DNA of 64,000 nucleotides from an uncultured Clostridia bacterium (GCA_947626145.1 CANQRB010000002.1:68339-132338); one strand, 5' to 3'. Counted from the first letter of the stretch, positions 27,725 to 39,868 are shown. A program made the numbers and translations. Notes: generated by a model not told the origin, from the letters alone.

Positions 27725-30700
27725 ATGACATTCAAACAAGGCGGAATTAAGGTCATGGCGTTTGTGCTGGCTCTTGCCATGGCGCTGACCGTAATTCCCG
27801 GACTCGCCTTCGCGGCCGATTTGAGCCCCGAGCTTAGGGCGGCTTACGACGCGCTGACGATCCACAATGCGGACGACGTCCGCGAAAGCTTAAATCTCCC
27901 GTCAGTGGGGGAGAACGGCGCGGCCATCACCTGGGCCTCGTCTGACGAAAGCATAGTTTCTACAAAGGAAATTGAAAACGAAGGATATTTCCCCACCCCG
28001 GCCGGCGTCGTTACCCGGCCCGCGGCGGATACGGAGGTTACCCTTACCGCGACTCTCACCCTCGGCGGCGAGAGTGTGGAGAAGGTTTTTGACCTGACCG
28101 TAAAGGCCGCTCCGGACAACAGCGTTTCCGCCCTTGAGGTGGACAACAGCGAGGATGGGGCTTACCTTTTTGTATATTTTACCAACAACGGCAAGGCCGA
28201 GCAGCAGATATACTTTGCCGTCAGCAAGGACGGCCTCAACTGGACCGAGCTCAACAACCGCTATCCCGTGCTGATATCCACCCTTGGCGACCGTGCCGTC
28301 CGTGACCCTTACATAATCCGCAGCAACGAGGGCGACAGGTTCTACCTCATCGCCACCGACCTTGACGCCAGCGGCGGCGATTGGACCGGCTACCAGTACA
28401 ACGGCAGCAAGAACATAATGGTCTGGGAGTCCACCGACCTTATAAATTGGAGCGATCAGCGGGAGCTGCTGGCCTCCACCCTGCCCGAGCAGGGATGTAC
28501 CTGGGCGCCCGAGGTAACCTATGACCCCGAAACTCAGAACTATGTCATTTACTGGTCCTCCAAGATGACCGACGGGAGCAATCCGCGTTACAAGCTGAAC
28601 GCGGTTTATTACGCCACCACCCGCGACTTTGTGACCATGAACAGCGAAAAGCCCGAGCTCTTCGTTGAGGGCAAGCTGGGCCAGACCGGCATCGTTGAAC
28701 CCGGCGCGGACAATTACAATGAAAATATAACCGTAATCGACACCACCGTGCTCCAGTCTGAGGTTGACAATAAATTTTACCGCGTGACAAAGCACGAGGG
28801 CGAAAGCAAGGTTTTCATCGAAAGCTCCGACAAGCTTCTGGGAAAATACGAGCCGATCGCGGGTGCGAACGTTTATACCAATCCGGATTTTGCCGGCGTT
28901 GAGGGCCCCGAACTCTACCGCTTGAAGGATGGCCGCTACTGCCTGCTCCTTGACCGTTTCGGGAATGGCGGTTATATGGCCGCTGTCACGGAGGATCTTT
29001 CCACAGGCGTATTCTCCAAGATGACCGAGGCCAGCAGCTTCCCCGTGGCCCGTCACGGCGGCGTTCTGAAGATAACGGATGAGGAATACGACAGAGTGCT
29101 CAATTACTACAACAACAACGCTGAAGCAGCTGCTCCGGGCGAGGCCGGCAGCGGCCCCATTGCCGCCTATGACTTCAACGACGGTACCGCAAAGGACACT
29201 ACCGGCAACGGCAACGACGGCAAACTTATCGCCAACGCCGCTGTGGTTGACGATGCCGAAAAGGGCAAGGCGCTCAGCCTTGACGGCAGCACCGACGCCT
29301 ATATGGAGCTTCCCGTGGGACTTTTGGACGGCAGAAACGAGCTGACGGTTTCCATGGACGTGCTTCACAACAACGCGAATAATGATAATTACTTTAACTT
29401 TGCTCTGGGCAACAGCGATACCCGCTATCTTTTCGCCCGTGCCCGGGGAGATATGTCCTATGTGGCAATCACAAAAGGATCGTATCAGAATGAGGAGAGC
29501 GTTACCGGCCCCGCGGTGCCCGGCAATCAGTGGACAAATCTCACCTTCACCGTTTCCGCCGCGGACAGTACCATGAAGCTGTACATAAACGGCAAGCTCG
29601 CCGCCGAAAATGCGAACATGGATTTGACGGTCTCTGACCTGGGCAACGCCACAAAGGCATATATCGGCAAGTCTTTTTACGGCAATGACAGGTTTGCCAA
29701 TATGAAGGCAGACAATGTGGAAATTTACGACCGTGTGCTCTCCGCCGATGAGATATATGAAAAATTCTCTCCCGCACCCACCAGCATATATAGCCTGAGC
29801 GTGGACGCCGGAGAACAGGGCGCCGGCATAACTCCCGGCACCGTGGGCCTCTTCTTTGAGGATCTGAACACCGCCGCCGACGGAGGCATCTACAGCGAGC
29901 AGATCAACAACCGTTCCTTTGAGGCTCTTGACGCCAAGGGCGACAAGGTGAACCCCGCCAAGATACCCGGATTTGCGTGGACAACCGTTGGCGATGCGAC
30001 CGCCGCTTACAACACTGACGAGCCGCTTAATAACAACAACAAGACCTATCTGACGCTTACGGCCGCGGCCGAGGGCGACGGTATTGAAAACAACTGCTAC
30101 GCCGGAGACGGCAGCAACAGCACTCCCGTCAGCAAGGGCATGAACGCCGCCGCCGGTGCCAAGTACAACGCCAGCCTCTTTGTGCGGGGCAGCTACGACG
30201 GAGAAATAAAGATGCAGATCGTCAGCGGCGACAAAGTCATCGGCGACGTTACCTTTAACGGCGTGACCGACACATTCGCTAAGAAGATCGGTGTTATCAC
30301 CGCCGTCGAGGACTGCGACGACGCCCGGGTGAGAGTAGTGCTTTCCAAGCCCGGTACCGTTGACATTGATATGATCTCCCTTATTCCTCAGCAGACCTTC
30401 AACGGCCGCGACAACGGCCTCCGCGCCGATTTGGTAGAGAAGCTGGCTCTGCTTCATCCCGGCTTCCTGCGCTTCCCCGGCGGCTGCATAATCGAGGGCT
30501 ACAATCTGGCCAACCGTTACCAGTGGAAGCAGACCGTCGGCCCCGAGGAGCAGCGCATCCTCAACTGGAACCGCTGGCAGACCGAGGGCACAATGAACTA
30601 CGCCTACTGCCAGACCTTCGGACTGGGCTTCTATGAATACTTCCTCCTCTGCGAGGATCTGGGAGCGGAGCCCGTTCCTGTGCTGAACGTGGGCCTTGCC

Positions 30701-32917
30701 TGCCAGTATCAGACGAAGGAAGCTTCTTCCAAGGAGGATTTCTACAGTACGTACCTTCCCGACTTCCTTGACCTTATCGAGTTTGCCAACGGAACCCCTG
30801 CCGATGGCTGGGAGGATATTGATTACTATGCGGTAGACACCGCAAATCCCGATACCTTTGGCAACAACTGGGCCAACCTCCGCGCCCTCATGGGACATCC
30901 CGAGAGCTTTGACATGAAGTATATCGGCGTCGGCAACGAGCAGATAGACACTTCCGACTATACCAACGTTGACGCCGACGGCTGGGCTGACAACGGCAAC
31001 AACTTCTTTGCCCGTTATGAAGCCATCGAGAAGGCCGTTCATGAGGAAGATCCCGACATGAGGCTCATTTCCACCTCCGGTCCCTCCGCCGACGACGCAG
31101 GAGACCAGTACGTTGAAAACGGCGGCGTGGGAGCCTTCTCCAAGGCGTGGAACTGGGCGAACGAGAAAGTAAAGGAAAATCCCGACTTTACCTATGCCGT
31201 TGACGAGCATTACTACAAGCAGCCCGACTGGATCCTCGCCAACGTGAACCGTTACGATATGTACGACCGAGATGGCGCCGCCGTGTTCGCCGGTGAGTAC
31301 GCTTCCCGTTGGTGGGAGGAGCTTCGCGGCAACACCTGGGAGGCCGCCCTCTCCGAGGCCGCCTTCATGACCGGCTTTGAACGCAACTCCGACGTGGTCA
31401 AGATGGCCAGCTTTGCTCCACTCTTTGCCAAGGAGGGCGGTTATCAGTGGTCGCCCAACATGATCTGGTTCGACAACGCCGACAGCTACGGCACCCCCGA
31501 CTATTACGTTCAGCAGATGTACAGCCGCAACAGCGGTGACTATAATGTAAAGACTGTTTTGAATGACAAAACCGACGACTATGCAGGCATCGTGGGCGTG
31601 GGCACATGGCTCACCGCCGCAAGCTTCCGCGATTTGAAGGTCGTAAACGACGACACCGGCGAGGAGATAAAGGTTGACGGATGGCAGGATACCACCGAAG
31701 GCAGCTTTGCCAAGGGCGGCGACTGGACGGTAAACGAGGACGGCTCGGCGGCCCAAACCAATATCGGAGCCGATAACGGAACCTATCTCTTTGCGAATAT
31801 GGAACCTGTTACCGCCAGGAATTTCACCGTGACGCTTAAGGCCACCAAGACCGACGGCGCCGAGGGCTTCACCGTTCCCATTATGGCCAAAGACAATAAC
31901 AACCTTATCCACTGGAACGTGGGCGGCTGGGGCAACAACGCTTCCTCCTTTGAAAACCGCGTAAACGGCGGAAATAACAGGGTTGGCGACTATGTGGGCA
32001 CTGTCCTTGAAACTGGCCGCGAGTACGAGCTGAAGATAGTTGCCAAGAACGGCACTCTTTACGGCTATATTGACGGCAAGCTCATCAACACCTTCAATTA
32101 CGACACCGACACCGTCTATGCCAACGCCATTAAGGACGAGGCCACCGGCGATGTGATCGTAAAGCTTATCAATTATTCCAATAACAGGGTCAGCCTTCCC
32201 ATTGAAATAAAGAATGCCGACCTGACCGGCAAGGCCACCGAATATCTCATGACAGGAGAATTCCTTGACAAGAACAGCCTTGCCGATCCCGAAAAGGTTG
32301 CTCCCGTGCGCAGCGAGATCGACCTTGCCTCCGGCGAAGTCTACACCATGCCCGAGTACAGCTTTGCGGTGCTCAGGTTCCACACCGGCGGCACGGTTGC
32401 CGTAAACAAGATCGACACCGTGGAGCTCACCGTTGACCTTGACAGTGACTTTGAGCTTCCCTCAAGCGTAACGGTATACACCGGCGATGGCGGCGAGGAG
32501 CAGCGGTCAGTCAGGTGGATACTTCCCGAGGCCGGCGTATTCGCCAACGAGGGCACCTTCAAGGTGTTCGGCCGCGTGGACGGCACCGAGCTTGACGCCG
32601 TGGCCATTGTGACCGTGGTCGCCAACACCGGAAAGCTTCCCGTAATCGACGCCGACATTGACGCTCTGATAGACGGCGAGGACGCTTTGATCTCCTTCAA
32701 TGCCGAGACCGCCGGCAGCTACAGAGGTATCGTTGCTGTCTACGGCGAGAACGGCATGGAGTCCGTACAGACCGTCGAGTTTACAGGCACTCACGGCGAA
32801 ATGACCGTCAAGGGTGCGGATCTGACCGGCAAGACCGTGAAGATCATGCTCTGGACAGCCGATGGGGTCAAGCCCGTCACCGACGCTGTTACGGTCGATC
32901 CCTCCGCGAATGGCTGA
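27725..32917 (+). CDS. secreted 1730-aa multidomain glycoside hydrolase: GH43, LamG/ConA-like lectin domain, GH51-like alpha-L-arabinofuranosidase, and C-terminal beta-sandwich/Ig-like modules
   Basis: Signal peptide. GH43 five-bladed propeller motifs (VRDPYIIRSNEGDRFYLIATD, WAPEV). LamG-like middle domain. GH51 motifs (FFEDLN..GG.Y, RFPGGC..EG, acid/base GVGNEQ, nucleophile FAGEYA). Confidence 0.85.
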   Translation: MTFKQGGIKVMAFVLALAMALTVIPGLAFAADLSPELRAAYDALTIHNADDVRESLNLPSVGENGAAITWASSDESIVSTKEIENEGYFPTPAGVVTRPAADTEVTLTATLTLGGESVEKVFDLTVKAAPDNSVSALEVDNSEDGAYLFVYFTNNGKAEQQIYFAVSKDGLNWTELNNRYPVLISTLGDRAVRDPYIIRSNEGDRFYLIATDLDASGGDWTGYQYNGSKNIMVWESTDLINWSDQRELLASTLPEQGCTWAPEVTYDPETQNYVIYWSSKMTDGSNPRYKLNAVYYATTRDFVTMNSEKPELFVEGKLGQTGIVEPGADNYNENITVIDTTVLQSEVDNKFYRVTKHEGESKVFIESSDKLLGKYEPIAGANVYTNPDFAGVEGPELYRLKDGRYCLLLDRFGNGGYMAAVTEDLSTGVFSKMTEASSFPVARHGGVLKITDEEYDRVLNYYNNNAEAAAPGEAGSGPIAAYDFNDGTAKDTTGNGNDGKLIANAAVVDDAEKGKALSLDGSTDAYMELPVGLLDGRNELTVSMDVLHNNANNDNYFNFALGNSDTRYLFARARGDMSYVAITKGSYQNEESVTGPAVPGNQWTNLTFTVSAADSTMKLYINGKLAAENANMDLTVSDLGNATKAYIGKSFYGNDRFANMKADNVEIYDRVLSADEIYEKFSPAPTSIYSLSVDAGEQGAGITPGTVGLFFEDLNTAADGGIYSEQINNRSFEALDAKGDKVNPAKIPGFAWTTVGDATAAYNTDEPLNNNNKTYLTLTAAAEGDGIENNCYAGDGSNSTPVSKGMNAAAGAKYNASLFVRGSYDGEIKMQIVSGDKVIGDVTFNGVTDTFAKKIGVITAVEDCDDARVRVVLSKPGTVDIDMISLIPQQTFNGRDNGLRADLVEKLALLHPGFLRFPGGCIIEGYNLANRYQWKQTVGPEEQRILNWNRWQTEGTMNYAYCQTFGLGFYEYFLLCEDLGAEPVPVLNVGLACQYQTKEASSKEDFYSTYLPDFLDLIEFANGTPADGWEDIDYYAVDTANPDTFGNNWANLRALMGHPESFDMKYIGVGNEQIDTSDYTNVDADGWADNGNNFFARYEAIEKAVHEEDPDMRLISTSGPSADDAGDQYVENGGVGAFSKAWNWANEKVKENPDFTYAVDEHYYKQPDWILANVNRYDMYDRDGAAVFAGEYASRWWEELRGNTWEAALSEAAFMTGFERNSDVVKMASFAPLFAKEGGYQWSPNMIWFDNADSYGTPDYYVQQMYSRNSGDYNVKTVLNDKTDDYAGIVGVGTWLTAASFRDLKVVNDDTGEEIKVDGWQDTTEGSFAKGGDWTVNEDGSAAQTNIGADNGTYLFANMEPVTARNFTVTLKATKTDGAEGFTVPIMAKDNNNLIHWNVGGWGNNASSFENRVNGGNNRVGDYVGTVLETGREYELKIVAKNGTLYGYIDGKLINTFNYDTDTVYANAIKDEATGDVIVKLINYSNNRVSLPIEIKNADLTGKATEYLMTGEFLDKNSLADPEKVAPVRSEIDLASGEVYTMPEYSFAVLRFHTGGTVAVNKIDTVELTVDLDSDFELPSSVTVYTGDGGEEQRSVRWILPEAGVFANEGTFKVFGRVDGTELDAVAIVTVVANTGKLPVIDADIDALIDGEDALISFNAETAGSYRGIVAVYGENGMESVQTVEFTGTHGEMTVKGADLTGKTVKIMLWTADGVKPVTDAVTVDPSANG

Positions 32918-32929
32918 TTAAGCAACAGA

Positions 32930-32962
32930 AATCGCTCCCCTTCGGGGGAGCGATTTTGTGTT
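32930..32962. terminator. bidirectional Rho-independent terminator (convergent GH gene and nadE)
   Basis: aatcgctcccc-ttcg-ggggagcgatt followed by ttgtgtt. Confidence 0.7.
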
Positions 32963-33019
32963 GGTTCTGTGTTCCAAAATATAGACGACGGCGTATTTCT
33001 CTCGAAATATAGAATTTTT

Positions 33020-33757
33020 TTATTCCCCGATTTTCGGGTCAAAGCTGGGCATGAGCTGGAGCTTAAACAGATTGGCCTTATGCTTGCGGTCGATGAGCTC
33101 CTTCTTGGCCTGGTCGTCGATCTTTCCGGTGCGGATATACACGTCAAGCTCAGCGTAGGTGAAGCCAAGGTTTTCCTCGTCGGTCTTTCCGCAAAGGCCG
33201 TCGATGGGCACCTTATCAACAAGCTCGCTCGGCACGCCGAGGATGCGGCCCACCTCCTTAAGCTCCGTCACCGTCAGGTGGGAGAGGGGAGAGAAGTCCC
33301 CCGCCGCATCGCCGTACCGTGTGGAATAGCCCACCCAGTCCTCGGAGAGGTTGCAGGTGTTTGCCACCCTGCCGTTGGAGGACTGGCCTATGGCGTACAG
33401 CGTGGCCATCCTTATCCGGGCGGGGAGGTTGGTTCTCGACTGCTCGGAAATCTCCAGCCCCTCGGGCATACTGTTCAGCAGGGCGTCCACGGCGTCCTTT
33501 ATATTAACGACATAATGCTTAATGCCAAGGTGATTTACCAGCTTATAGGCCATGCCTATGTCGTGCTGTTCGCCCTTTGGCATCAGAACGCCGATAACCC
33601 TGTCCCGTCCAAGGGCCTCAACACACAGGGCCGCCGTTATGGAGCTGTCCTTGCCGCCGGATATACCCACGATGGCGTTGCAGCCCGGCCCGTTTTCCTC
33701 GAAAAATTTCCTTATCCACTCCACGCACTGATCCTTGATTTTTATAGCGTCAAACAT
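33020..33757 (-). CDS. nadE: ammonia-dependent NAD(+) synthetase
   Basis: PP-loop ATP-pyrophosphatase signature GISGGKDSS; the size (245 aa) and overall similarity fit NadE. Confidence 0.9.
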   Translation of the reverse strand: MFDAIKIKDQCVEWIRKFFEENGPGCNAIVGISGGKDSSITAALCVEALGRDRVIGVLMPKGEQHDIGMAYKLVNHLGIKHYVVNIKDAVDALLNSMPEGLEISEQSRTNLPARIRMATLYAIGQSSNGRVANTCNLSEDWVGYSTRYGDAAGDFSPLSHLTVTELKEVGRILGVPSELVDKVPIDGLCGKTDEENLGFTYAELDVYIRTGKIDDQAKKELIDRKHKANLFKLQLMPSFDPKIGE

Positions 33758-33790
33758 AGCTTTATACCTCCGTTTCGTATTTTTTACATT

Positions 33791-33819
33791 ATTATACTAC
33801 ACAAAAACGGATTTTTCAA
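33791..33819 (-). promoter_or_regulatory. sigma-A type promoter of nadE
   Basis: Minus strand: TTGAAA, 17-nt spacer, TATAAT. Confidence 0.5.
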
Positions 33820-33881
33820 TCATTTTTTATGCTATGTTATCGACCTGTTTTTTCATTTATGTTAAAGGATGTACGGGATTT

Positions 33882-34928
33882 TTAATCCGCCGTTTTCGGA
33901 GCCTCGCTGCGGTCATAGATGACGCTGTGTACGGTTCCGTCGGGGTTGTGGGTTTCGGAGCGGCTTTCAAACACCTCCGCCCCGTTTACCTCAAAAATGT
34001 GCTTTTCCACGAGCGCGCCGTCCTCGCTGTATTTTGCCCATGTGAGAGTGCCGTCGGCCTCGCTGCCGTCCCAGGACGTTTCGTAAACAAAGCGCTCGCC
34101 GTCCTCCAGATATTCCTGCGTGCCGATAAAGTCGGGATACTTCCAATATTCCCCGTCCTTTTTCATTTCAGAGAAACGGTTCGACGCCTCGGCGCTCATG
34201 TCCGGCAGAATCGTATCAAGGTCGGAATAGCTGCAGACCTCCGCCTCATGGCCGATACTCTCCACATAATTTCGGACATGGCTGAATTCCTGCTCTTGCA
34301 GTTCGTCGTATCTGTCCTGAGCGTCAATGGCCTCATCCCAAAGGTCAGGAGGGAACATCTCCTTTATGGACGGCAGATAATAGCTGCCGTCCTCGGGCGC
34401 GCTGATGCCCTCCATAACAAAGCTGCCCTCCGGATTTTCAATCACCTCAAATTTCATGGGTATGGCTCCGCTGCCGCTGTCCTTGACGAATTTTCCGTTT
34501 ATAAAGGAGTAGCCGCCGATAGATGTAATGGCGTAAACAGTGTGTCTCTTTTTGCCGTCTGTTGGATGCTCCCTGACGTCGTCCCGCAGGATAATGTGCC
34601 CGCTGGACCAGAACTCCGGATCGGCATAGCCGCCGCTGCCGGAAATGAGGGCCGCCGATATTGCCTTGTCCAAACTGTCAAATTCAGATGGCCCGACGTT
34701 ATTCTCCGGCCCGACCGCCTGACCGTTGGTGCTTGTCGGCGGTTCCTCGCTCTTACAGGCCACCAGCGCGCCGGCAGAAAAAGCGGTCACGGCCGCGAGG
34801 GCGATAAGTCCCGCGCCCAGCTTCTTTGTCTTTGTGCTAAGTATGTTTGCAAAACGTTCCTTCGCTTTTTCGCCGCTCTCGCTGAAGGACGTGGACAGGA
34901 ACGGCGGCTCAATAAATTGCTTCTTCAT
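33882..34928 (-). CDS. BlaR1-family C-terminal cassette 2: junction motif + TM + ~290-aa extracytoplasmic domain (stand-alone)
   Basis: Begins MKKQFIEPPFLSTSFSESGEKAKERFANIL, then a TM helix. Has its own GAGGGGG RBS. The N-terminal ~60 aa are homologous to cassette 1, but the ectodomain is unrelated. Confidence 0.65.
   Translation of the reverse strand: MKKQFIEPPFLSTSFSESGEKAKERFANILSTKTKKLGAGLIALAAVTAFSAGALVACKSEEPPTSTNGQAVGPENNVGPSEFDSLDKAISAALISGSGGYADPEFWSSGHIILRDDVREHPTDGKKRHTVYAITSIGGYSFINGKFVKDSGSGAIPMKFEVIENPEGSFVMEGISAPEDGSYYLPSIKEMFPPDLWDEAIDAQDRYDELQEQEFSHVRNYVESIGHEAEVCSYSDLDTILPDMSAEASNRFSEMKKDGEYWKYPDFIGTQEYLEDGERFVYETSWDGSEADGTLTWAKYSEDGALVEKHIFEVNGAEVFESRSETHNPDGTVHSVIYDRSEAPKTAD
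34741..34928 (-). repeat. ~190-bp junction module, copy 2 (homologous to 35761-35961)
   Basis: Nucleotide alignment within the window: a ~60-nt core is >90% identical (cgccgctctcgctgaaggacgtggacagga), with flanks ~75% identical. Confidence 0.7.
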
Positions 34929-35973
34929 ACTCGTTTTCCCCCTCGATGTAAAATAGTGTCCGCACCTTTATGGGCTCCAAATTTGCGCTGCTCATCAAAT
35001 AGTGCATAATGCCCTCGTGGGTAAGGCTTGTATCGTCCAGCAGATAAAAGTTCGCCGCTCCGTAGTCATTAAAAACTCTGAGATGGTCGTACTCGCCGTA
35101 ATCCAGATACAGGCCGTCGCCGAACCTGTCGCGGCTGTTGTCCTTGCCGCCGTAATAGCGGTACCCGTCATAGACCAGCCTTGAAAGAATCGGGTCGCCC
35201 TCAACGGTGTACTGTACCACGTCAAGGGAGGCCGGGCGGCGATTTTTCACGTCCTCCAGAAAAGTGTCCAGAAGCGGCCTGTTCTCCGCGCCCATGTAGT
35301 TTAACACAAGGGCGTGCTCCCGAAACTCCTCCGGCTCAGCGGCTTCGAGATATTCCCGAACGGTAGGACTTTCGATCTCCGCCATGGCGCCGGCGTACCG
35401 CCGCGCAAAGGCACCGGCGTTGGTGCCGTCACCGGTGTCCGCTTTCCTTGGGTTATGCCATTCGGTGCCGCCGCTCCCGTCGCGCCAGGCCACGGAATTC
35501 AGCTCCGGCTCAAGGATCAGTATGAGGTCGGCGTACTGCAGCATTATGCGGCAGCAGTCGTACTCTCCCTTTTCGCCGAAGGGCTCCGCAAAGGACAGCA
35601 TTACCTCGGGCATATTGTCCGCCGTTCCGTCGCCGTAGTTTATTTCCGTTTCAAAGGGGCCAAGCCTGCCGGCGATATCAAGCGCGGAGGTTATTTCGTC
35701 GATGTCCCCGCCCCGCAGAGCGTAAAGCTCCGTCGCCTTGCCGGTCAGTATGGTTTCCTCCTCGAGCGGCGCGGGCCTCTCATTTTTACAGGCCACCAGC
35801 GCCCCGACGGCGAAAACGGTCACGACCGCAAGAGCGATGATCCCCGCACCCGACTTTTTAGTCCCCGTGTCCAGTATGTTCGCAAAGCGGTCTTTCGCCT
35901 TTTTGCCGCTCTCGCTGAAGGACGTGGACAGGAAGGGAGGGGAGATGTATTTATTTTTCATGGATTGCCCCAC
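34909..35973 (-). CDS. BlaR1-family C-terminal cassette 1: junction motif + TM + ~290-aa extracytoplasmic domain
   Basis: Begins (MGQS)MKNKYISPPFLSTSFSESGKKAKDRFANIL, then a TM helix. Its ATG at 35961 lies inside the last codons of the M56 gene at an A5 tract. Confidence 0.65.
   Translation of the reverse strand: MGQSMKNKYISPPFLSTSFSESGKKAKDRFANILDTGTKKSGAGIIALAVVTVFAVGALVACKNERPAPLEEETILTGKATELYALRGGDIDEITSALDIAGRLGPFETEINYGDGTADNMPEVMLSFAEPFGEKGEYDCCRIMLQYADLILILEPELNSVAWRDGSGGTEWHNPRKADTGDGTNAGAFARRYAGAMAEIESPTVREYLEAAEPEEFREHALVLNYMGAENRPLLDTFLEDVKNRRPASLDVVQYTVEGDPILSRLVYDGYRYYGGKDNSRDRFGDGLYLDYGEYDHLRVFNDYGAANFYLLDDTSLTHEGIMHYLMSSANLEPIKVRTLFYIEGENEYEEAIY
35761..35961 (-). repeat. ~190-bp junction module, copy 1
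   Basis: See copy 2. Confidence 0.7.
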
Positions 35974-36760
35974 CTCGTTTCATGGTTTTTAATACCGTCA
36001 TGGAGTAAAGCCTGCGGAACTCCATATCCTTACCTCTTGTCACGGCGTCGTCGCAGGAGTATTCCAGGTCACGGTTGGCCTGACGCACCATGAGGTACAC
36101 AAGGGGATTGAACCAGTGGGCGGCGTTGGCTGTCAGGAGCAGCAGCTTGTACCACAGATCCCTGCGGCGGAAGTGGGTGTATTCATGGGCGAAAACCACA
36201 TTCAGCTCCTCGGGGGTCAGCTCAATTTCCGGCAGAAGTATTTCCGGCTTAAAAAATCCGGTGAGCATGGGGCTTTCGATGGCGCCGCACCGGAACACCG
36301 GCACCCCCTTATAGTCCCCCTCGGGTCGCAGCCGTGACCTAACAGTCAGCTTAAACCGCCAATAAATTATGATGTGAAACAGCATAAATCCTGCCGCGCC
36401 AACAGCCCAGATAATGAGGAGCAGCCGTTCCAGCGTCATTACCGGAGCGTAAGCGGCGGAATTGACGGCGGCCGCCGGGTCGGAGGCGGCCCTTTCCCTC
36501 CGCTTGCTTTCAGGCATCACGGTGACGGGCAGAGCGGCGCCGGGAGGACTTATGACCACAGTCCGCTCCGGCGCGGTGATGGTCACCGGAGCCTCGGGCA
36601 GTGCAAAGCTCACGGGAATGAGGAGCCGCACCGCCAAAATGAGCCACAGGATGTATTTTCCCTTCGCCATATACCGTTTGTCAATAAATTTGTTGAGTAT
36701 GAGCACCAAAAGGATAACCACCGACACCGAAAGGGAAATTTCAAGAACCGTCGAAATCAT
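35951..36760 (-). CDS. BlaR1/MecR1-family M56 peptidase, transmembrane protease domain only (269 aa; no in-frame sensor domain)
   Basis: HExxH zinc motif (FAHEYTHF) in the typical M56 context, with four TM segments. The ORF stops at HEK*, immediately before the conserved post-protease motif that continues in the next ORF. Confidence 0.8.
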   Translation of the reverse strand: MISTVLEISLSVSVVILLVLILNKFIDKRYMAKGKYILWLILAVRLLIPVSFALPEAPVTITAPERTVVISPPGAALPVTVMPESKRRERAASDPAAAVNSAAYAPVMTLERLLLIIWAVGAAGFMLFHIIIYWRFKLTVRSRLRPEGDYKGVPVFRCGAIESPMLTGFFKPEILLPEIELTPEELNVVFAHEYTHFRRRDLWYKLLLLTANAAHWFNPLVYLMVRQANRDLEYSCDDAVTRGKDMEFRRLYSMTVLKTMKRGGAIHEK

Positions 36761-37128
36761 TCCTTTGCCCCCCTGATAAAGTCCTCCAGTTCAGCAAGGT
36801 CAGAGTCGGTGATGGCCCGCCCGTCATAGAGCGACGCCACCAGCGCGGTCAGGGAGCCCATATGTACCTTTTGCAAAAAGCTTGCGCTTTCCCGCCGAAC
36901 GTAATCCTCCCGATCCACAAGAGGGGTATAGACGTTTATCTTTCCCCGCTTTTCACAGCTGAGGAAGCCGCGGTCGCAGAGCCGCGACAGGAAGTTCAGC
37001 AGCGTGGATTTTTTCCAGCTTTTGTGCAGCCTTTCCAGCAGCATTTCGGAGGTCACGGGCCCGCCCTCGTCCCACACGGCCATCATTATTTCAAATTCGC
37101 TGTCCGGCAGTCTTTTGTTTTCCGTCAT
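36757..37128 (-). CDS. BlaI/MecI/CopY family transcriptional repressor
   Basis: Winged-helix N-terminus (SEFEIMMAVWDEGGPVTSEMLLERL...STLLNFLSRLCDRGFL) and a C-terminal dimerisation helix. 4-nt overlap with the M56 gene. ATG start at 37128 with an AGGGTG RBS. Confidence 0.85.
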   Translation of the reverse strand: MTENKRLPDSEFEIMMAVWDEGGPVTSEMLLERLHKSWKKSTLLNFLSRLCDRGFLSCEKRGKINVYTPLVDREDYVRRESASFLQKVHMGSLTALVASLYDGRAITDSDLAELEDFIRGAKE

Positions 37129-37140
37129 AAAAATCACCCT

Positions 37141-37186
37141 ATATTTTACATTTGTCTAATTTCAATTTATATTTTACACCTGTCGA
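37141..37186 (-). promoter_or_regulatory. two BlaI-type operator half-dyads (TACA-N-TGT) overlapping the blaI promoter and transcription start
   Basis: Direct repeats atattttacatttgtc / atattttacacctgtc. BlaI/MecI operators are built on TACA/TGTA dyads. Confidence 0.4.
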
Positions 37187-37199
37187 ATATATTTGTCAA
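37171..37199 (-). promoter_or_regulatory. sigma-A type promoter of the blaI-M56 operon
   Basis: Minus strand: TTGACA, 17-nt spacer, TAAAAT. Confidence 0.5.
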
Positions 37200-37257
37200 T
37201 AGTTTTTTTAAAATTTTTTTGGACGGACGCGCCGGCAAAACAGCGTAAAAGACAAAA

Positions 37258-37300
37258 AGCCCGCCGGAACGCGAACGCTTCGGCGGGCCTTTGTTTTTGG
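37258..37300. terminator. bidirectional terminator downstream of the XRE gene
   Basis: gcccgccg ... cggcgggc 8-bp stem, T-rich on both sides. Confidence 0.55.
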
Positions 37301-37499
37301 CCGATCGTTTTTCAAATTCGTCAGGAACAGCATATATGAGATGTGTCGGCTCAAATTTTTGCATCCGGAACTCGGGAACAGAGATCATGATGCGGCCGGG
37401 ATTCTATACGTTGATGCCGCAGACAGTAAAGATTTGTCCTTCTCCGCTGGATATCCGGTCGGCATATATGTACATCTCATCGCGTTGGCGGGGTTTAGC

Positions 37500-37733
37500 C
37501 TACGAAAGCAAATCCGAGACAGAAACGCCCATGTATGCGGCTATGCTGCATACCGTGCTCAGCTTGGGATTGGTCAGCTTACGTTCGAGCAGACTGATCT
37601 CATCCGGGCTTACGCCGCACTTTTCGGCAAATGTCTCTTGAGTTTCGTTGGCAGTATGGCGAAACTTTTTCATATTTGCTGATAAAGCTTCAATTTCCGT
37701 CATTTCGTCACCCCTTTGTACAAAATTATACAT
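37500..37733 (-). CDS. XRE family HTH transcriptional regulator (small)
   Basis: ETQETFAEKCGVSPDEISLLERKLTNPKLSTVCSIAAYMGVSVSDLL is a Cro/C1-type HTH. Confidence 0.65.
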   Translation of the reverse strand: MYNFVQRGDEMTEIEALSANMKKFRHTANETQETFAEKCGVSPDEISLLERKLTNPKLSTVCSIAAYMGVSVSDLLS

Positions 37734-37844
37734 GATTTTTATGAATTTGTACAGGGATTACATTACGGATTTGGAAAATTTTAGAAAAAAATTTTAGGCG
37801 CGGTTTCGCTGCCGGCCAAGCGGAACCGCGCCGGATTAAAATCA

Positions 37845-39143
37845 CTATCGATCGGTCGGCAAGCCGATCAATATTATGCCGGTGAACATTTTATCCTTGG
37901 CGTCATAGAACCATTTCATGCTGCCGTCATAGTTTTTCAGAGCGTGGCAGATGCTGGACATCCCTATGCCGTGGGCGTCCTTATCCTTTTTTCGGGTGAG
38001 GAGCCGCCCGTCCTCCGCGGCGGGCTCGGCGTCGCAGCTGTTTTCCAGCTTGATGGCGGCGTAGGCATTGTTTACGGTGTAAAGGCTCAGGAATATCTTT
38101 TTTCCTTCGGAATGTGCCGTGCTTTCGATGGCGTTGTCAAGCAGATTGGCGAAAATGGCGACTATGTCCGTGTCGGAAATAAAGGATATATCCACGTTTT
38201 GCACGTCGATCTGGAGGTCGATGCCCTCGCGGCTGCAGGTTTCCATTTTCTGCGATAAGATAATGTTCAGCGTCTTGTTATCGGTGTATTCCGCAAGCAG
38301 AAATTCTCTGCTTTTATTCCGCAGGCCGCGTATCAGACTCAATATTTTATCGGAGCTTTCGCTGTCGGTGAGCAGCCCCTCAATGCTGTTGTAATAACTG
38401 TTAAAGTCGTGGGTCATTATTCTGAGCTCGTCGTACTTTTCCCGCAGCAGCTCATAGCTGCGCCAGTCCAGCTCGTTCTTGTGCTCCATTTCCTGAAATT
38501 GGCGTATTTTTGCGTTTTTTTCGGCAATCATATCAAAGACCACACAGTTGGCGTAGTTGGCCGCTATGACAAAAAAATACAGGCAGAGGAAGCCGACCCG
38601 GTCATAAAATGAAAACTGCTTGATCATCTCGTCCATTACAAATATAAAAACCGTACTCGCCGCCGGGAACACCAAAAGCAGCAGCTGTTCCTTAAGGGCG
38701 CCCTTTAATTCCCCCAGCTTCATGAACCGTTTCAAAATGAGGACAAGCAAAAAGTATATAAACTTTGACGAAACGGAGAATATCCAATAAAAACCGTCCG
38801 GCAGCCCGGCGGTATCGGAATGTATCCCCGCAGCCGTCAAAAACAGCGCCTCGCCGGCCATCATAAAAGCCGTAAGAAGAAAGGTCTTAAGGGCCGCCGA
38901 CCATATTTTTTCCTTGTAACCGAGAATAATAACGGTAAAAATCATTATAAAGCCGCTTATCAAATTCAAGCTGGAATTGCCGAAGCCGCATATTACCGCG
39001 TGAATCAGATAACCGATTACCGCCGTAAGATTGCTTTTAAGTCTTGACTTTCTGTATGTAAGCGTAGAATTTGCAAAATAAATGAATATCAAACATTCCT
39101 GCACGATTGAAAAGATTGTTGGCAGCAAGACGCCGAGGCTCAT
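37845..39143 (-). CDS. sensor histidine kinase, AgrC/LytS-like (HPK10-type, pairs with the LytTR regulator)
   Basis: Six or seven N-terminal TM helices (AT-rich DNA). C-terminal GHKL ATPase motifs (NLLDNAIESTA, GIGMSSI). Confidence 0.85.
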   Translation of the reverse strand: MSLGVLLPTIFSIVQECLIFIYFANSTLTYRKSRLKSNLTAVIGYLIHAVICGFGNSSLNLISGFIMIFTVIILGYKEKIWSAALKTFLLTAFMMAGEALFLTAAGIHSDTAGLPDGFYWIFSVSSKFIYFLLVLILKRFMKLGELKGALKEQLLLLVFPAASTVFIFVMDEMIKQFSFYDRVGFLCLYFFVIAANYANCVVFDMIAEKNAKIRQFQEMEHKNELDWRSYELLREKYDELRIMTHDFNSYYNSIEGLLTDSESSDKILSLIRGLRNKSREFLLAEYTDNKTLNIILSQKMETCSREGIDLQIDVQNVDISFISDTDIVAIFANLLDNAIESTAHSEGKKIFLSLYTVNNAYAAIKLENSCDAEPAAEDGRLLTRKKDKDAHGIGMSSICHALKNYDGSMKWFYDAKDKMFTGIILIGLPTDR

Positions 39144-39868
39144 CTGATCTCACCTGCCCGCATAAAAAATTTTTTGTCAAAGCCGCCGTAACACCTTCTG
39201 GACATGGCCGCCGTATATTTTCTGCCGCCGTATGCGAGAGTGACGCTTTGCCGGTCATAATCGGTCACGTAGCGCATATTCACGTAAAAGCTCTGGTGGG
39301 ACTGGGCGAAATACGCGGCCTCCTTCTCTATGAGACTTTTCACCGTTTTAAACGGTTCTTCCGCAATAAAATCGTAGTCCTTAGACACAACATGGGTGTG
39401 CCTGGAAATATTTTCGATATAGATGATCGAGGCCGTTTCAATATCCAACGAGACCTTATTTTTCCGATTGGTGAGGGAAATGCGCCTGTCTCTGTCTTTT
39501 ATCTTCTCCAAAGCACTGTCTATGCCGCGCTCCAGCCTTGACCTGTCAAGCGGCTTTGGCAGAAAACGGAATGCCCCCACGTCAAAGGCCTTGTCCAGAT
39601 AGATCTGATAGTTGGTGATAAAGAACACAAAACAGTTTTTGTTTTTTTCGAGGAGTTTTTTTGAGAGGGCAATCCCGTCGACCCCGTCCATTTTAATGTC
39701 GAGAAAGGCCATATCATAGTCCGCGCCCGCACTTAAAAGCTTGTTCGGGTCATGAAAAATACAGTATTCACGGTCGGTCTGTTTTTCTGTAAATATCGAA
39801 TTTATCATTTCTATTTCGGCGTTGAGGTCAGAGAGCTCGTCGTCACATACGGCTATTTTTAATTTCAT
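39140..39868 (-). CDS. LytTR family two-component response regulator
   Basis: Receiver domain (CDDE...D...K) followed by a C-terminal LytTR DNA-binding domain. 4-nt overlap with the kinase gene. Confidence 0.9.
   Translation of the reverse strand: MKLKIAVCDDELSDLNAEIEMINSIFTEKQTDREYCIFHDPNKLLSAGADYDMAFLDIKMDGVDGIALSKKLLEKNKNCFVFFITNYQIYLDKAFDVGAFRFLPKPLDRSRLERGIDSALEKIKDRDRRISLTNRKNKVSLDIETASIIYIENISRHTHVVSKDYDFIAEEPFKTVKSLIEKEAAYFAQSHQSFYVNMRYVTDYDRQSVTLAYGGRKYTAAMSRRCYGGFDKKFFMRAGEIR

Follow-up and report, generated by a model that had tools for sequence, protein, structure and literature searches.

BlaR1 and MecR1 control beta-lactam resistance in methicillin-resistant Staphylococcus aureus (MRSA). 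We analysed a relative of these systems in a 64,000-nt stretch of DNA from an uncultured Clostridia bacterium (GCA_947626145.1, CANQRB010000002.1:68339-132338; hereafter the window, with positions counted from its first letter), where a gene for a BlaI-like repressor is followed by a gene for an M56 peptidase and by two genes for membrane-bound sensors. These four genes form an autoregulated operon that probably encodes a naturally split signalling protease of the BlaR1 type, i.e., a heteromeric receptor in which the sensor subunit would both plug and complete the protease.

The structural framework for this comparison comes from a 2023 cryo-electron microscopy (cryo-EM) study of BlaR1 (8EXP-8EXT; PMC9834060), in which residues 271-289 form an autocleavage loop that was proposed to act as an autoinhibitory plug. 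The P4-P1' segment of the loop (L-S-H-S/F; the slash marks the scissile bond) sits as a beta-strand in the catalytic cleft and is cleaved in cis at the bond from Ser283 to Phe284, and the loop, intact or cut, sterically keeps BlaI out. According to the same proposal, a domain-swapped helix alpha9 completes the active site of the neighbouring subunit: Arg294 of alpha9' makes a salt bridge to Asp246 and is directed at P1'. In B. licheniformis, activity falls severely when Arg293 and Arg294 are both mutated, and the purified wild-type BlaR1 sample contained fragments 1-283 and 284-585 alongside the uncleaved protein (PMC9834060).

Fused BlaR-like proteins outside beta-lactam resistance (M56-DUF4825, M56-M23 and CenR of C. 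difficile; PMC13492132) are the other close relatives. They share with the present locus the protease, the junction module, the ectodomain families (DUF4825, M23 and unannotated domains) and a BlaI-like gene immediately upstream, whereas each of them is a single polypeptide with one sensor; an InterPro survey in that report assigned ~15,000 M56 proteins to 254 fused architectures. The survey deals with fused architectures only and, in the passages searched, mentions neither separately encoded nor multiple sensors. Both the BlaR/BlaI family and the variety of C-terminal domains fused within it are known (PMC9834060; PMC13492132). In the literature, which our search covered incompletely, we found no description of separate-gene sensors or of multi-sensor arrays serving one BlaR-type protease; provisionally, the view of the initial annotation that tandem alternative sensors on a BlaR1-family protease are undescribed stands.

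All four genes lie on the minus strand and are tightly packed, in the order repressor, M56 protease, sensor 1, sensor 2. The repressor gene (36757-37128) encodes a winged-helix protein of the BlaI/MecI type with 123 amino acids (aa), counted from the ATG at 37128 and called with the same length in identical contigs; its match to PF03965 (Penicillinase_R/BlaI family, E 5e-27) bears out the earlier assignment of a blaI-type gene upstream of M56. Its stop codon overlaps the M56 start (ATGA). The M56 gene (35951-36760) encodes a sensor-less protease core of 269 aa (PF05569, E 1.2e-43). Sensor 1 (34909-35961; 350 aa; N-terminus MKNKYISPPFLSTSFSESGKKAKDRFANIL) consists of a junction module (aa 1-35), a transmembrane (TM) helix (aa 36-61) and an ectodomain, and sensor 2 (33882-34928; 348 aa; N-terminus MKKQFIEPPFLSTSFSESGEKAKERFANIL) of the same module, a TM helix (aa 37-60) and a different ectodomain. 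The M56 stop and the sensor-1 start share 11 nt (35951-35961), comprising the ATG (35961-35959), a run of five A residues (A5, 35958-35954) and the TAA (35953-35951). A Shine-Dalgarno-like GAGGTG stands 9 nt upstream of the sensor-1 ATG. The sensor-2 start overlaps the sensor-1 end by 20 nt and is preceded, ~8 nt before the ATG, by the Shine-Dalgarno-like GAGGGGGAA, so that the second sensor cassette indeed follows directly with its own ribosome-binding site (RBS), as had been annotated.

The M56 core has three TM helices by hydropathy and a gluzincin domain with the motif HEYTH, in keeping with the HExxH plus Glu/Asp signature of BlaR1 and MecR1. It aligns to BlaR1 (8EXP) residues 157-272: equivalents of His201, Glu202, His205, Glu242 and Asp246 are all on the M56 piece (its Glu and Asp align to E242 and D246), those of Tyr261 and Ile265 are present, and the polypeptide ends just past helix alpha8 (RLYSMTVLKTMK), opposite approximately residue 272. 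The match to PF05569 covers profile positions 2-269 of 296, and the NCBIfam model blaR1_generic scores 85.8 against a cut-off of 400. Apart from a loop of ~50 residues, hydropathy indicates no ectodomain of its own; the protein is not the usual four-TM polypeptide with a C-terminal extracellular sensor, TM4 and the ectodomains being carried by other gene products. The open reading frame (ORF) closes with GGAIHEK (final codons GCA ATC CAT GAA AAA TAA), and the HEK end, the A5 run and the overlapping ATG AAA AAT AAA reported earlier for 35951-36760 were all confirmed on the sequence.

Deletion of a single A joins the two frames into a continuous protein (...AIHENKYISPPFL...) of the standard BlaR1-family order, with the peptide AIHENKYISPPF across the M56/sensor-1 junction; the fusion foreseen by the initial annotation is real in this sense, at 616 aa instead of ~620. 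Used as a phmmer query against the PDB, this artificial fusion aligned to S. aureus BlaR1 (8EXP) over residues 157-318. Counted along this alignment, the sensor LSTS/F stands opposite Leu280-Ser281-His282-Ser283/Phe284, and the Arg of KDRF (Arg25) opposite Arg294 of helix alpha9. The motif that opens sensor 1 had been taken for the conserved continuation of M56 proteins, and in full-length homologues it is just that: 62 of the 120 best matches have it at residues ~273-313 with a TM helix behind it. The continuity from M56 into the module is based on these alignments to full-length homologues and to 8EXP, since Pfam alone is not enough: an extension of the Pfam M56 model over the junction of the fusion was considered and rejected, because the model reaches only profile position 275 of 296.

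The module common to both sensors reads MK..(F/Y)I.PPFLSTSFSESG.KAK.RFANIL and is followed by one TM helix. In sensor 1 it comprises a leader, the LSTS14/F15 loop and the Arg25 helix, all cytoplasmic. Loop L-S-x-S/F, alpha9 with its active-site Arg, TM4 and an extracellular sensor are thus present as in BlaR1 and MecR1, and on both sensors the loop and the Arg stand next to TM4, but in trans to the protease and not in cis. BlaR1 is also found in two fragments, after autocleavage; in the window, however, the break is genetic, lies ~13 residues before the scissile bond and leaves loop, Arg, TM4 and sensor on separate polypeptides. Among 111 stand-alone sensors from other genomes (see below), Arg25 and Ile29 are conserved in 100%, the P4 Leu in 95% and the P1' Phe in 92%, and fused proteins show the same pattern. 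Judged from these alignments, the break is at a structurally natural seam of BlaR1; the loop and Arg residues that are critical in the cryo-EM model stay fixed on the separate sensor protein. Position P9 of a Pro-Pro ahead of the loop is conserved in 99% of stand-alone versus 21% of fused sequences; an I-K-P-P leader of 10-13 residues is specific to the stand-alone sensors. The TM helices of both sensors end in GALVAC(K), with a lipobox-like L-V-A-C (34750-34760 and 35783-35793, minus strand); LVACN/S is common in fused homologues as well, though not universal (loci L008 and L013 lack it). The signal peptidase SpsB cuts S. aureus BlaR1 in the linker that follows TM4 (PMC9834060), and here the ectodomain might be processed by signal peptidase II and lipidated.

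The same organisation, blaI followed by a truncated M56 gene and by one to four separate sensor genes, was found in at least 12 loci besides the window. The closest one, L006, has an M56 protein of 269 aa (87-89% identical to that of the window), two sensors and the same 11-nt overlap including A5. An ATGA overlap joins the two parts in L008 (268 aa, one sensor), L015 (265 aa, three sensors), L018 (263 aa, one sensor) and L021 (265 aa, three sensors), and a short overlap, of ~8 or 23 nt according to which start is taken, does so in L025 (278 aa, three sensors). Spacers separate them in L011 (278 aa, at least two sensors; 1 nt), L012 (260 aa, three sensors; 52 nt), L013/L014 (262 aa, four sensors; 14 nt), L020 (270 aa, at least one sensor; 69 nt) and L023 (M56 gene call broken into 52 + 189 aa, at least one sensor; ~25-40 nt depending on the start chosen). 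In L026, from the cultured isolate Desulfosporosinus sp. BG, an M56 protein of 294 aa is separated from a single sensor by 86 nt that contain stop codons in every frame. Ahead of the sensor starts, Shine-Dalgarno-like sequences can be seen in the window, L006, L008 and L011, and across loci the sensors open with MK..I.PP.LST(S/A)FSE.GK..K.R...IL and then a TM helix. It should be noted that the genome and metagenome contig scans used very narrow peptide patterns (yielding 7 loci and 1 locus), so that these loci are examples and not a census. One candidate (L022) was discarded as a chance match, and another (L024), cut just upstream of the sensor gene, is not counted among the context loci.

We also searched a profile of the 59-residue module against 1.84 billion cluster representatives and obtained 295 proteins at E <= 1e-3. 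Among the 150 best matches, 111 are stand-alone proteins (median 327 aa) with the module at residue 12 or before and none with HExxH, whereas 33 are fused, with the module at residues ~260-390 behind M56 and HExxH in all; the stand-alone sensors thus amount to at least 111 clusters at 50% identity, as counted in the best 150 of the 295 matches. Stand-alone homologues of sensor 2 (P0122-P0130) are 37-85% identical to it and lack an M56 domain, as does a sensor-1 homologue from the same search (P0136), which is listed together with P0001 as a stand-alone orthologue of sensor 1; all of these homologues start at the same Met-Lys-Lys position ahead of the motif. A search with M56 alone retrieved 110 new relatives, 81 of which are 254-300 aa long, all with HExxH, and the C-termini of the short forms all fall within ~30 residues of the alpha8 helix RxYSMTILKxMK. 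When the artificial fusion was the query of a word-indexed search, sensor 1 came back at 100% identity but no truncated M56 protein did; these surfaced only when M56 was used alone, so that a candidate pre-filter can evidently hide short relatives of a long query. The family is widespread in Clostridia, to which the named sources belong (Oscillospiraceae, Eubacteriales, Acetivibrio, Desulfosporosinus, Desulfitobacterium and the rabbit-gut 'Lapin' metagenome-assembled genomes). In one subgroup of truncated M56 proteins (P0300, P0302, P0304, P0308, P0309, P0312, P0314 and others; ~282-287 aa) the chain ends in ...TLSTYLNGG(x)NE, a tail through which the protease piece may retain a plug, either vestigial or alternative.

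A survey of related genomes had been set beforehand as the test of three readings of the split, namely an indel or ON/OFF switch at the homopolymer, a frameshift of +1 and a genuine two-piece system. Orthologues with separate protease and sensor genes were found, which rules out the indel or switch; the frameshift reading fell with it and the two-piece reading stood. Comparison of these genomes makes it very probable that the genes are genuinely separate and that the split architecture is conserved. The split form is also close to the fused one: D. fructosivorans has a fused protein of 628 aa (P0004), to whose halves the M56 protein and the sensor of Desulfosporosinus sp. BG are 88% and 80% identical, respectively. 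On sequence grounds, fused and split forms are interchangeable in evolution, and such identity between orthologues argues for an equivalent function of the two.

The operon carries the marks of autoregulation. A sigma-70-type promoter (37171-37199, minus strand) combines TTGACA, a 17-nt spacer and TAAAAT, with 11 of 12 consensus matches. One operator-like box (GACAGGTGTAAAATATA, an ACA-N2-TGT dyad; 37168-37184) overlaps the -10 hexamer and another (GACAAATGTAAAATATA; 37140-37156) lies in the 5' leader, both on the minus strand. The box motif GACAnnTGTAAAATATA occurs twice in the window versus 0.04 copies expected by chance; the consensus is (G/T)ACA-N2-TGTAAAAT, and the copies at the promoter read GACAnnTGTA. 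This layout of promoter and two boxes upstream of blaI is kept in five of the six related loci examined (L006, L011, L012, L013 and L015), whereas L008 has a single box ~107 nt upstream. By analogy with the known TACA/TGTA dyads of the BlaI/MecI/CopY family, we infer that the boxes are BlaI-type operators. An adjacent winged-helix repressor with a C-terminal cleavage region, together with ACA-N2-TGT dyads at an autoregulated promoter, is a further likeness to BlaR1/MecR1-BlaI/MecI. In the alignment to 1SD6/1OKR, the predicted repressor cleavage site LVAS99/L100YDG corresponds to N101/F102 of MecI and shares the P4 Leu and the P1 Ser with the sensor loops. The repressor segment SASF (residues 81-84), considered as the site by analogy with STS/F, was dropped in view of the MecI alignment.

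The two ectodomains are unrelated, as the initial annotation had held: BLASTP detects no similarity between them. Sensor 1 has a weak match to DUF4362 and belongs to the DUF4825/DUF4362 group; its structure model (predicted local distance difference test, pLDDT, 49) is unusable. Sensor 2 has no Pfam or NCBIfam match. Its ectodomain was modelled by AlphaFold2 with a pLDDT of ~90 as a helix-on-sheet (cystatin/NTF2-like) domain, a helical linker and a beta-meander, and a fold search with this model returned no significant structural neighbour. Differences from BlaR1 and MecR1 extend to this part of the system, in that Pfam and NCBIfam scans of the operon proteins gave no match to the penicillin-binding sensor domain PF00905, and no beta-lactamase or penicillin-binding protein gene is linked to the operon. 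In the 91 stand-alone sensors that reach 200 aa or more, ectodomain matches include DUF4825 (26), LytR_cpsA_psr (7), DUF4362 (4), Peptidase_M23 (3) and DUF881 (2), and DUF4825 and M23 ectodomains occur both split and fused to M56. Pfam matches to OAD_beta in 12 sensors were treated as spurious; in P0142, the one inspected, it scores below threshold and coincides with the TM helix. The ectodomain set (DUF4825, LytR-CpsA-Psr, M23, DUF881 and folds without a name) points to cell-envelope signals other than beta-lactams. Relatives of the sensor-2 ectodomain with 27-30% identity occur in Anoxybacillus (P0131-P0135), on proteins with a plain N-terminal TM helix and no junction module; their NCBI label, 'transcriptional regulator', looks like a mis-annotation.

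These observations can be combined in a mechanism of the plug-and-complete type, which we favour with fair confidence on the basis of residue-level homology to BlaR1, co-occurrence and conservation. The M56 gene product would be the protease core alone (TM1-3 and the cytoplasmic gluzincin domain through alpha8), and each sensor would be a type II membrane protein with ~35 cytoplasmic residues (the loop L-S-T-S/F and the alpha9 Arg), TM4 and an ectodomain. The sensor subunits would join the core non-covalently, their loop filling and inhibiting the catalytic cleft while their Arg completes it. A signal at an ectodomain would cause the loop to be cleaved or expelled; the protease, now free, would then cut the BlaI-like repressor at the predicted site, and the operon, with possible further targets, would be derepressed via the two promoter boxes. 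Two or more sensors per protease/repressor pair would allow one output to integrate different signals. Somewhat less firmly, the balance tips toward a modular multi-input receptor, in which one core is inhibited and completed in trans by any of several sensors and the repertoire evolves by recombination at the junction-plus-TM module of ~60 residues.

Several points weigh against this scheme. Binding of the sensors to the M56 core is deduced from sequence. The predicted P1' residue of the repressor is Leu and not Phe, a difference from the BlaR1/MecR1 systems, and Phe is almost invariant in characterised BlaI proteins. The scheme gives no role to the 13-residue leader ahead of the scissile bond. 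The 64-kb window contains no further copy of the box, so that only autoregulation is visible here and no member of the regulon beyond the operon itself emerges. Finally, the five assemblies that are identical at A5 (see below) represent one clone (100% identity) and are silent on minority length variants in reads.

The explanation that best survives beside a heteromeric receptor, although we consider it improbable, is that the stand-alone proteins are not subunits, and act instead as competing substrates, decoys or anti-protease regulators, or are matured by M56 through removal of the 14-residue leader, while the core signals alone. The intact scissile motif, the free N-terminal leader and the Pro-Pro specific to stand-alone forms are compatible with this possibility, and the BlaR1 loop is itself a substrate. 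However, the invariant Arg25 corresponds to Arg294, a part of the BlaR1 active site, and the Arg293/Arg294 double mutant is severely diminished in activity; therefore, a core without alpha9 is expected to be incomplete. In addition, M56 has no ectodomain of its own beyond its ~50-residue loop, and the 80-88% identity between fused and split orthologues speaks for an equivalent function.

It is far less likely that A5, or the AAA-TAA at the M56 stop, is a device, i.e., that slipped-strand ON/OFF switching or programmed frameshifting yields some fused M56-sensor-1 protein. Loss of one base, or an equivalent ribosomal shift, would indeed join the frames in the window and L006. Nevertheless, the overlap is not kept beyond this closest relative: at least six junction geometries occur among the orthologues, and in the other loci the frames would have to be joined by different shifts or are set apart by spacers of 14-86 nt, the longest of them closed in all frames. 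A split with such varied junctions is explained neither by one homopolymer slip nor by a conserved frameshift signal. The A5 tract is, moreover, identical in four metagenome contigs of the ENA from different samples (assemblies ERZ27249467, ERZ27060228, ERZ27249462 and ERZ27249252, all Illumina), which match the window at 100% identity over 1.9-7.4 kb; this agreement excludes an assembly error, and no length variation is seen among the five assemblies, nor does the tract differ from A5 in L006. The A-richness of the site follows from the codons of the conserved Met-Lys-Lys/Asn start (here Met-Lys-Asn-Lys). Contingency tracts typically comprise at least seven residues, for which A5 is short.

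We regard with equal doubt the possibility of a programmed cassette system, in which homologous recombination at the junction repeat would switch the ectodomain in use. The repeat on which it is based is real: the module of sensor 1 (35786-35940, minus strand; 30-nt exact core 35905-35934) and that of sensor 2 (34753-34907, minus strand; core 34872-34901) form a direct repeat of 155 nt with 80% identity without gaps. It is somewhat weaker than the ~190 bp with a 60-nt core above 90% that had been annotated, as identity is 75% over 190 nt and exactly 90% over the best 60 nt. As a mechanism, the proposed swap of ectodomains found no support. Since the repeats are direct, a crossover would delete cassette 1 and not exchange it; no recombinase is present among the ORFs listed for 32000-39500, so that neither hallmark of a shufflon-like system, a dedicated recombinase and repeats of the exchange type, is found; and both cassettes are complete, independently translatable genes in one translationally coupled operon, each with its own RBS and ATG, so that neither depends on a swap for its expression. 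In the window, L006, L011 and L012 alike, sensor A precedes sensor B and the 20-nt overlap is kept. Among codons for identical residues, 60% are identical between the two modules of the window, compared to 64-66% for cross-genome paralogue pairs and 72-80% for orthologues; because the first value does not exceed that of the paralogues, gene conversion is not detectable after the lineage parted from L006.

On an evolutionary scale, recombination or gene conversion at the module has left clearer traces. Different ectodomains follow nearly identical junction-plus-TM modules in L015 and L021: the modules of the first two cassettes of L015 are 97% identical in nucleotides and in 94% of codons, while the ectodomain of the first matches no other cassette in BLASTP and those of the second and third are of different families. 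Two modules of L011 are 87% identical in protein. From these comparisons, module-level recombination, or homogenisation by a shared protease partner, is part of the evolution of the family. Genes of mobile elements adjoin some of the related operons: in L011 (69-1478) a tyrosine integrase and an HTH_17 excisionase-like gene lie directly upstream of blaI, and in L026 (10058-11008) an IS200-type Y1 transposase directly follows the sensor.

That the split is an artefact or a recent inactivation, with a one-base insertion into A4 having broken a blaR1-like gene and cassette 2 being the leftover of a degraded paralogue, would agree with the 616-aa protein restored by one deletion and with the fused homologues at 40-50% identity, but this can hardly hold given the identical tract in the window, four separate assemblies and L006, the 12 other loci that are equally split with different junction sequences, the existence of 111 clusters of stand-alone sensors and of 81 truncated M56 proteins, the constant distance of the start codon from the motif in every sensor and the evident constraint on all catalytic and loop residues.

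A naturally split receptor of this type has implications for the model of BlaR1. A natural break between alpha8 and the loop, with P4, P1' and the Arg kept on a separate protein, amounts to an independent evolutionary test of the cryo-EM model. The split family would also provide a ready two-component system, in which plug, Arg and sensor can be supplied, titrated and mutated in trans. With two sensor polypeptides in the window and up to four in its relatives, in contrast to BlaR1 and MecR1, BlaR-type signalling can be many-to-one, one to four different sensors serving one protease. Such designs are familiar elsewhere: several chemoreceptors feed one CheA, and several kinases feed Spo0F. The likeness, varied input domains with a shared docking module and one output, is by analogy only, as those systems use phosphotransfer and the present one would use repressor proteolysis, and there is no homology between them. 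For annotation, the consequence concerns thousands of Firmicutes genes described as 'M56 with no recognisable C-terminal domain' or as 'hypothetical membrane protein'.

The surroundings of the operon contain a few further features. Directly upstream (37500-39868, minus strand) are a small HTH_3 regulator and a pair of a LytTR response regulator and an HATPase_c_5 histidine kinase; they are probably unrelated to the operon, because this neighbourhood is not kept in L006 or L008. On the other side, a secreted multidomain protein of 1730 aa (27725-32917, plus strand) adjoins the region and is, by the look of its sequence, of a glycoside-hydrolase or carbohydrate-binding type. Two antisense ORFs on the plus strand over the sensor genes (33735-35009, 424 aa, and 35314-36093, 259 aa) are most likely GC-rich shadow ORFs.

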